Sequence record: MZ726791.1
Length of the DNA: 64,000 nt
DNA from: Escherichia phage vB_EcoM_ASO1A
Reading direction: 5' to 3' (one strand)
A model generated the notes under the pieces. The model made no database searches. It was not told the DNA's origin and saw only the letters and a list, made by a program, of their open reading frames with translations. Made by a program: the position numbers and the translations under genes. Within the stretch, counting starts at the first letter, position 1. Each line of letters starts with the position of its first letter. Shown here one piece after another: positions 14,730 to 16,310 of this stretch.

Positions 14730-16310
14730 CGTCTATTGAATCCTTATACAATCCCTTTCCAGAATCTTATCAGACCTTAAAAGCAATAACTCTATAGTCT
14801 ACTCTATAACCTCTTATCAAATCAACTTAAATAAAAGCCAATAACCCCCAGAAAGGGGATGGCCCATTTAAACGCTCTATAAAGCTCTATAACAGCCTTA
14901 TCAACCTAACTTAAGGGATTGCATTAACCAACCTTAAAAAGCTCTTTACAGGGCTTTATAGAGACTTAAAAGAATCTTATAAGGGTGTAAGCTTTATCAT
15001 CTCGTTAGTATCTTGTGAATAACTAAAAAGGGCTTGTTAGTGTCTTAAAAGTATGTTATAGGGGCTTAAAAGTTACTTCAAAGTTACGTAAAAGGGGCTA
15101 TAAAGTTACGTAAATGCTAGCCCCCTTAACATTTTCTTAACAATTTCTTAACAATCCCTACATAGTTATGCTTTTAAGGCACTTGTTAGCAACTTGTTAG
15201 CCCCTTGTTAAATCTCTGTTAAGACCACGTAAAAGCCTTGTAAGAACCTTTGACATAGCCTTAAAAGCCCCTGTAAAGCCCTATAAAGAGGTATCTGTAC
15301 AGTTGGGGGGTAAATACTAGGAAGAGATTTAAAAGAGGCTATAAAGAGCTATAGAGGGCTTTTAAGAGGTATGTTTAAGGAATCACTAAGAAAGGAAAGG
15401 GAACGATAAGAAAAGAGTAGTGACCTTGTTAATAGCTTGTTAAAAAGATTAAACACTTGTTAGAGACTTGTTAATTATCTTAACAAAATAACTCTTAAAA
15501 ATTAACTTGTTAGCTATTGTTAGTCATCTGTTAAGATTCTGTAAAGTCCATGTATCAACTGTTAAGAAACTGTTAAGCCCTTGTTAGTTCTTTTAAGAAT
15601 CTGTTAAGACCTATGAAGAGTTGTTAAGAAGGTGTTAGAACTGTTAAGAGATTGTTAAGGATATTTTAAAATTTTGCAAAGTACTTGTAAGGGAGCTGTT
15701 AAGGGCTACCAAGCAGATATACATCCTATTCAGATATTTTTGAGTTCCTTCAAAGACCCTAAAAAATGACTTGATAACCCTATTTTATAAAAATTTTAAA
15801 ATTCTGAATAATTACCTATACAGTCTTCTAAAAATACAGGCATAAACAGGCTTATAAGATACCTTGTTAGTACCGTGTTAGACCTTGTGAGATAAGGCCT
15901 GTAAAGATATTCCTGTTAAGTTTGTTAAAACAGTCTATATAGAGGCTTAGTAATACCTAGTGAACACCTATAGAGGGTATCATAGCTTACCTAGAGATTA
16001 AGAGGTGTATAGGAGCTTCTAAGAGGGTGTAGAGAGATGGTTAAGGTGATTGTATAGGCTGTTAAGAAGGCTTGTTAGAAGAGTGTTTAGAAGGCTTGTT
16101 AGAAGGGCTATACAGAGGGCTATTAAGACCACTAGATAGTTACTAAGATACTATATAGTACTATATAACTATATATAGAGAGTAAGATTAAGAAGGTTGT
16201 TAAGAAGGGTAGATATTTTGTTCACATATGATGGTGACCCAGAGGTTGGGACAACCGATAAAATTTTATAAAAATTAAAAAGCCCCCAATTAAGGAGGCT
16301 CTTAAGATAT
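14730..16310. repeat. gene-free region with dense short iterons (YTGTTARR family, about 11 bp spacing)
   Basis: No ORF of 60 aa or more on either strand; more than 30 copies of CTTGTTAG / CTGTTAAG / TTGTTAAG, e.g. 15181-15240 and 15430-15660; also CTATAAAG and AAAAGCCC recurrences. Confidence 0.7.

Follow-up and report, generated by a model that had tools for sequence, protein, structure and literature searches.

Joined chromosome ends as the very probable nature of a gene-free, TGTTAR-rich region in Escherichia phage vB_EcoM_ASO1A

The 64,000-nt stretch of Escherichia phage vB_EcoM_ASO1A analyzed here (hereafter the window) contains a region of about 1.6 kb, at 14730-16310, that is devoid of genes and filled with copies of the hexamer TGTTAR (TGTTA[AG]). 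This region very probably represents the two physical ends of a linear Felixounavirus chromosome, joined in a circularized assembly and including the direct terminal repeat (DTR), because the ends of mapped relatives fall at 15120 and 15710. Most of the TGTTAR copies are located inside the repeat, where they probably serve the recognition of the termini and the packaging of the DNA. The next sections present the evidence for the chromosome ends, the arrays and their conservation, and then discuss the role of the arrays, the other explanations for them, and how they compare with known systems.

The gene-free region and the chromosome ends

No open reading frame (ORF) of at least 60 amino acids (aa), the cut-off applied, is found on either strand between 14666 and 16311. 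These 1646 bp are the widest such gap in the window, the runner-up being a gap of 668 bp within the tRNA cluster, so that the ORF gap is indeed exceptional, as the initial annotation of the sequence had claimed. The matching database record has no annotation between the terminators at 14704-14733 (+) and 16270-16301 (-). Positions 14400-16700 are 100% identical to Escherichia phage vB_EcoM_ASO1B (MZ726792.1; Ounavirinae, Felixounavirus), with unchanged coordinates. Furthermore, the region is kept in 255 phage records, nearly all of them from Felix O1-like phages of Escherichia, Salmonella, Shigella and Citrobacter.

Evidence for the position of the ends came from these relatives. Exact repeats are present at both ends of the records of Ro111lw (613 bp), ZX4221 (591 bp) and phiST56 (611 bp), and for Ro111lw and ZX4221 position 1 aligns to 15120 of the window and the last base to 15710. 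The records of I14.1, H12, GE_vB_7A, GE_vB_B1, NJ12 and SPT-1 also start or stop at the equivalents of 15120/15710, those of I14.1 and H12 starting at the former. Altogether, at least eight related records have a terminus at the equivalent of one of these two positions, so that, by homology, the virion ends would be fixed.

Published mapping experiments lead to nearly the same boundaries. The DTR of UAB_Phi87, 608 bp long, was mapped by Bal31 digestion combined with run-off sequencing, and its sequence was printed in Fig. S1 of that study (PMC4837284). The GenBank record of UAB_Phi87 does not carry a DTR feature, and the supplementary figure was used instead: the published repeat, AACATTTTCTTAACAA...GATGTTAAGGGCTACCAA (start AACATTTTC, end GGGCTACCAA), corresponds to 15128-15712 of the window. 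The annotated DTR of UAB_69 maps to 15118-15712, and PhageTerm gave DTRs of 613 bp for Ro111lw and 581 bp for Pr103Blw (PMC6454146, PMC8303462). Thus, depending on the method, the left end of the chromosome maps to 15118-15128, namely, to 15120 (Ro111lw, ZX4221), 15118 (UAB_69) or 15128 (UAB_Phi87), and the right end to 15710-15712. The lengths of the DTR among the relatives form a stepwise series of 581, 591, 608, 611, 613 and 618 bp. In addition, the TerL of Felix O1-like phages clusters in the DTR group (PMC4837284).

Read from the mapped termini of the relatives, the region would begin with the final unique part of the right arm, continue with the terminal repeat and finish with the initial unique part of the left arm (Table 1). 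The initial annotation had placed here an internal convergent junction, a view that must be abandoned: the "convergent" gene blocks occupy the two extremities of the virion DNA, with transcription running outward in each, and only a concatemer brings them face to face. Among the database records many, and with them the one that matches the window, were opened at rIIA; the records of PAK_P1 and PAK_P3, two distant Pseudomonas relatives, open at TerL.

The TGTTAR arrays

Between 14730 and 16310, there are 29 copies of TGTTA[AG] on the + strand and four on the - strand. The density on the + strand is 18.3 per kb vs 1.0 per kb in the rest of the window, and dinucleotide-preserving shuffles contained 1.96 +/- 1.4 copies and never more than 8 (2000 shuffles). 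The 8-mers CTTGTTAG and CTGTTAAG are present in nine copies each, where the rest of the window would predict 0.04 and 0.16, which corresponds to a 55- to 240-fold enrichment. Most copies, 24 out of 33, are inside the terminal repeat (20 direct and four inverted), one is in the left flank and eight are in the right flank.

The copies are also regularly spaced. Twelve of the 28 spacings between adjacent TGTTAR hexamers measure 10-12 bp, while random placement gives 1.5 such spacings and never more than 7 (20000 trials); within the terminal repeat the fraction is 11/19 (P < 1/20000). Base-identity autocorrelation at lag 11 is 0.405 vs 0.268 +/- 0.013 in other chunks of 1581 bp, with echoes at lags 21-22 and 31-32 over the whole region. 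The Rayleigh power of the motif positions is highest at 10.3-10.4 bp (P < 1/3000), i.e., the long-range phase is that of the DNA helical repeat. Periodicity and motif enrichment had been set beforehand as the tests on which the arrays could fail, and both signals turned out to be strong. The more than 30 TGTTAAG-type copies counted in the initial annotation (about two are expected) and their frequent 10-12 bp spacing were thus recovered, as were the quoted example, exact at 15181-15223, and the recurring motifs CTATAAAG, AAAAGCC and GGGGCT.

The arrays are arranged around the termini. The reverse complement of the right terminus box, GGTAGCCCTTAACA, mirrors the left terminus box, and the segment 15123-15154 forms an inverted-repeat pair with 15674-15705. 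The box common to both boundaries, in mirror orientation, is TAGCCC(CC)TTAACA. A segment of about 200 bp without the motif separates the four direct copies of the left half of the repeat from the main array. Outside the repeat, the right flank includes an AT-rich stretch at 15740-15860, with a GC content of 0.23 vs 0.38 for the genome, and a 24-bp tandem at 16060-16105.

Two other identities of the motif were considered and rejected. One is the operator of a transcription regulator: outside the region, the matches to its position weight matrix are scattered singletons at chance density. The other is an array of promoters, given that TTAACA resembles a -35 hexamer: promoter-like sites number 11 vs 6.7 +/- 2.9 expected, which is not a significant enrichment, and the hexamer has no consistent -10 element after it.

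Conservation in related genera

Conservation was calculated from an alignment of 10 genomes belonging to Felixounavirus, Suspvirus and Mooglevirus, with 68-90% identity to ASO1B. Motif columns of the DTR are 94.6% conserved vs 77.8% for the non-motif columns, and over the whole region the difference between motif and spacer conservation has a Mann-Whitney P = 5e-10. The mean conservation of the intergenic region is 0.81, with 0.79 for the left flank and 0.85 for the right flank; for the flanking genes, the values are 0.81-0.88 at codon positions 1+2 and 0.58 and 0.71 at third positions. The length of the region ranges from 1607 to 1743 bp across the three genera, which also keep the copy number (17-20 direct plus four inverted) and the orientation of the motif. 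Most insertions and deletions measure 11-12 or 21-23 bp, in agreement with the stepwise series of DTR lengths in the relatives. The alignment therefore shows purifying selection on the region, flanks beyond the DTR included, and this selection is motif-specific within the DTR.

The motif was also found in an Erwinia Kolesnikvirus, for which the sequences used were phage Prophecy and an IMG/VR contig that starts and ends with a 444-bp repeat. Only about 55-75 bp can be aligned, yet the layout is the same. The DTR has inverted TTAACA copies with 11-bp spacing at its very left end and a run of direct TGTTAAG copies in its right half, followed by the TTTTGCAAAG box near the right end, and AGATATACA lies immediately outside the right DTR end. 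The Kolesnikvirus flanks possess 11-bp-phased heptamers of their own, TTCTAAG to the left and TTCTCAG to the right of the repeat (Prophecy 1-860; contig stretches 1-830 and 12960-13716). These heptamers differ from the CTCTATA and CTTAAAAG families of the ASO1A flanks, whereas the TGTTAAG array in the repeat is common to both.

When IMG/VR was scanned for three copies in phase, 120 loci were obtained. Arrays with at least 12 copies per 600 bp were confined to Ounavirinae-like contigs of 84-94 kb; the remaining loci, with 3-8 copies, are consistent with chance, and the occurrence of the same motif in unrelated phages was rejected.

A proposed role in terminus recognition and packaging

The reading that we favor, with moderate confidence, is that the TGTTAR arrays act at the concatemer junction as a platform for terminus recognition and packaging, in analogy to the CCTAAAG arrays of the T7 terminal repeat. 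The hexamers TGTTAA/G share one face of the DNA, because they are about one helical turn apart and nearly all in one orientation. They could therefore offer multiple sites for the cooperative binding of a putative phage-encoded recognition protein. The boxes at the edges, in mirror orientation, would position the TerL nuclease to cut or nick at both boundaries. Duplication of the repeat would follow in the course of packaging, in the way proposed for T7. The binding of a protein, the role in recognition and packaging, and the mode of duplication are all steps that we infer. The initial annotation had listed a replication origin, a centromere-like site, a packaging site and a protein-binding array as options, among which packaging fits best.

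As for the packaging enzymes, a TerL with the Pfam domains Terminase_6N/6C is present, and Whichard et al. reported that Felix O1 has only TerL (PMC3185647). No small terminase (TerS) could be recognized: the gene upstream of TerL gives no Pfam match, and its PHROG is of unknown function. This gene, at 31620-31820 (+), encodes a 66-aa protein (phrog_4397) and is directly upstream of TerL, where TerS would be expected. AlphaFold predicts a two-helix hairpin, with a predicted local distance difference test score (pLDDT) of 83. This fold is uninformative, and together with the lack of a Pfam match and of a PHROG function it gives no support to the 66-aa protein as the binder of the arrays or as TerS.

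Several points weigh against the interpretation of the region as chromosome ends equipped with a packaging platform. The termini of ASO1A were placed by homology to the relatives, the mapped cut positions vary by up to 8 nt between mapping methods, and their position relative to the mirror boxes differs by 2-4 nt between the two ends. No protein that binds the arrays was identified; the flanking proteins have no Pfam match and belong to PHROGs of unknown function. The conservation of the flanks (0.79 and 0.85) and their eight motif copies on the right have no specific account in a model based on cutting, and iterons beside AT-rich DNA would equally mark an origin. Finally, the searchable literature holds no packaging or transduction experiment on this element; the PhageMaP study of the Felixounavirus Bas63 targeted genes only and says nothing on the region.

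A more daring version of the packaging role, which we regard as speculative, treats the whole repeat of about 590 bp as a nucleoprotein "ruler". About 24 TGTTAR sites on the same face would be coated or wrapped by a putative phage protein that replaces TerS, with the mirror boxes at the edges fixing both cuts and the length of the repeat. On this view, the stepwise DTR lengths from 581 to 618 bp would come from units of 11 bp being added or lost. If true, this would be a mode of terminus recognition undescribed for any myovirus, and the recognition subunit missing so far from the Felix O1 group, phages in wide use for Salmonella typing and biocontrol, would be identified.

Other explanations for the arrays

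The alternative that survives best, though we hold it to be rather unlikely, is an iteron-type replication origin, in which an initiator would recognize the phased repeats and melt the AT-rich stretch at 15740-15860; such an origin could coexist with a role at the termini, like the secondary origins phiOL and phiOR near the T7 ends. The direct repeats do adjoin DNA of very low GC content, purifying selection extends beyond the DTR, and T7 has the annotated promoters phiOL and phiOR beside its terminal arrays. However, the units are cores of 6-8 bp on an 11-bp period, compared with the iterons of 17-22 bp of known origins, and the adjacent genes include none that resembles an initiator, their products having no Pfam match and PHROGs of unknown function. 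The arrays are also placed and oriented by the termini and not by the AT-rich stretch. Host factors offer no help to this explanation, as DnaA-box-like sites number 1 vs 0.5 expected and IHF consensus sites are absent from the region; with DnaA boxes not enriched and IHF sites missing, the motif as a set of host-factor sites was rejected altogether.

T5 has a repeat-rich injection-stop region in its terminal repeat. An action on the incoming DNA is conceivable for ASO1A as well, because both virion ends carry the repeat: a phage or host protein coating the ends might protect them from exonucleases, pause or anchor the DNA during entry, or promote recombination of the ends into concatemers. Arrays at both physical ends, phased on the same face, would suit a filament-like coating. 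Nevertheless, the mirror boxes are exactly at the cut sites and therefore suggest a link to cutting, so that we judge this explanation improbable.

An even weaker case can be made for the idea that slippage during replication, or recombination, merely left the repeats behind in non-coding terminal DNA, with the cut sites alone being functional. The insertions and deletions in steps of 11 and 22 bp, and the similar steps in DTR length, are what slippage would produce, but the much stronger conservation of motif columns relative to the spacers, the copy number and orientation kept across three genera, and the persistence of the motif in a genus whose DNA no longer aligns all speak for selection on the motif itself.

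Lastly, small proteins or a non-coding RNA missed by the 60-aa cut-off are a very improbable explanation. Some records do annotate tiny coding sequences in the region, and a 26-aa ORF at 15644-15724 (-), MYICLVALNSSLTSTLQNFKISLTIS, which straddles the right terminus, is intact in 10/10 aligned Ounavirinae genomes. However, this ORF overlaps the invariant terminus box, and its intactness is probably due to conservation of the box at the DNA level, because it has many non-synonymous changes and no spaced Shine-Dalgarno sequence. Among the ORFs of 25-37 aa, 5/6 are interrupted or frameshifted in relatives (10-genome alignment), so that the small genes which the initial annotation feared to have missed turn out to be broken in relatives. 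An Rfam scan at a permissive E-value gave no match at the gathering score, the sole hit, Phe_leader, having 26 bits where 55 are required and falling on the terminator at 16273-16333. The region is also bracketed by terminators that point into it, and it has no significant excess of promoter-like sites.

Anatomy of the junction and other features of the window

The elements discussed above are collected in Table 1.

Table 1. Elements of the terminal region of ASO1A, in window coordinates
Element	Position	Strand	Remarks
Rho-independent terminator, end of the rightward gene block (right arm of the virion DNA)	14704-14729	+	Hairpin 14704-14723
Left flank, unique sequence of the right chromosome end	14730-15119		Degenerate units of ~11 bp: CTCTATA x4 and the CTTAAAAG/CTATAAAG family; top strand C-rich
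Two 8-bp palindromes TTACGTAA	15084-15091, 15106-15113		Just left of the left terminus; second copy invariant in 10 genomes
Left terminus box CTAGCCCCCTTAACA	15116-15131	+	Reads CTA/GCCCCCTTAACA; nearly invariant in three genera
DTR equivalent, 591 bp	15120-15710		At both virion ends, once per concatemer junction; placed by homology to mapped relatives
Three inverted copies TTAACA, 11-bp spacing	15126-15153	-	Begin 6 bp from the left terminus
Four direct TGTTAR copies, exact 11-bp spacing	15184-15222	+	
Main array, 16 direct TGTTAR copies and one inverted (15480), phase ~10.3 bp	15427-15702	+	Ends 8 bp from the right terminus
Conserved TTTTGCAAAG box, unique in the window	15672-15681	+	30 bp from the right end
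Right terminus box TGTTAAGGGCTACC/AAGCAGATATACA	15697-15723	+	Invariant in 10/10 aligned genomes
Right flank, unique sequence of the left chromosome end	15711-16310		8 TGTTAR copies (15865-16203), TATAGAG x3; top strand G-rich
Rho-independent terminator, end of the leftward gene block (left arm of the virion DNA)	16278-16303	-	

The flank heptamers themselves give the region a rough dyad symmetry around the terminal repeat, with four CTCTATA copies on the left (14790-14891) and three copies of the complement TATAGAG on the right (15938-16180).

Elsewhere in the window, 25 tRNA genes form a single cluster at 26246-31397 with small ORFs interspersed, an organization typical of Felix O1-like phages. 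Away from the terminal region, the identity to ASO1B is 91.6% at 19000-22049 and 98.4% from about 22 kb onward, where the two sequences are offset by 243 bp; the tRNA coordinates are shifted accordingly (compared span 19000-44757). The composition of the window (1-64000) is also unusual: GATC is absent vs 225 copies expected by base composition, CGCG, CCGG and GCGC are depleted 3- to 9-fold, and many 6-bp palindromes, such as AGATCT, ATGCAT, CTGCAG and CTCGAG, do not occur. This depletion of palindromes is an extreme avoidance of restriction or Dam sites.

Significance

Felix O1-like phages are employed in diagnostics, biocontrol and therapy directed at Salmonella and E. coli, and they are now being engineered. 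Records opened at rIIA hide the true ends of these genomes inside a seemingly odd internal intergenic region. Knowing that the DTR is at 15120-15710 tells engineers where payloads should not be inserted and guides the correct rebuilding and rebooting of linear genomes. Furthermore, the TGTTAR array, together with the mirror terminus boxes, makes a defined DNA bait for the putative recognition protein of a group without an identifiable TerS.

Comparison with known systems

The closest relatives of the element are the DTRs of the Felix O1-like phages UAB_Phi87, Ro111lw, Pr103Blw and UAB_69, which are the same element by homology, with 86-93% identity and the same boundaries. The DTR itself has thus already been published for this group, including its printed sequence. 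These reports give the length of the DTR, and once its sequence; no description of the phased arrays, of the boundary mirror boxes or of the conserved 1 kb of flanks was found in the searchable literature.

Looser analogues are known from other packaging systems, in which repeated short elements flank a cut. In phage P1, TGATCA/G hexamers precede and follow the cut in pac, and lambda cosB contains the R sites; as in the ASO1A region, these elements presumably load a recognition subunit. The likeness ends there, as P1 packages by the headful mechanism with permuted ends and lambda has cohesive ends, whereas the ASO1A chromosome would have fixed ends with an exact repeat. The number of copies is also far higher in ASO1A, with 33 over 1.2 kb.

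The iteron origins of plasmids and lambdoid phages resemble the region in having helically phased direct repeats beside an AT-rich stretch. Unlike these origins, the ASO1A region has a much shorter unit, lacks an initiator gene next to it and is not enriched in DnaA boxes, and the physical chromosome ends would fall within the array.

The concatemer junction of T7 offers the best parallel. Like the ASO1A region, it has a short exact DTR in a non-coding, gene-free stretch between the last and the first genes, and a motif of 6-7 bp that recurs many times in one orientation, every 11-13 bp or so, both within the repeat and next to it. The T7 sequence has three copies of CCTAAAG in the 160-bp repeat, about 12 just to the right of the left repeat and several just to the left of the right repeat. 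The two junctions differ in several respects: the motif is CCTAAAG instead of TGTTAR, most T7 copies are outside the repeat while most copies in ASO1A are inside, and the T7 repeat is 160 bp long vs about 590 bp. Moreover, ASO1A is a myovirus with a T4-type TerL (Terminase_6N/6C) and no recognizable TerS, opposite to the T7-type gp18/gp19 pair. Because the motif and the terminase differ and there is no sequence homology, the resemblance is a functional analogy only. The Felix O1-like arrays would provide a second, independent example beside T7 with which to ask what helically phased short repeats do around the ends of short-DTR phages.

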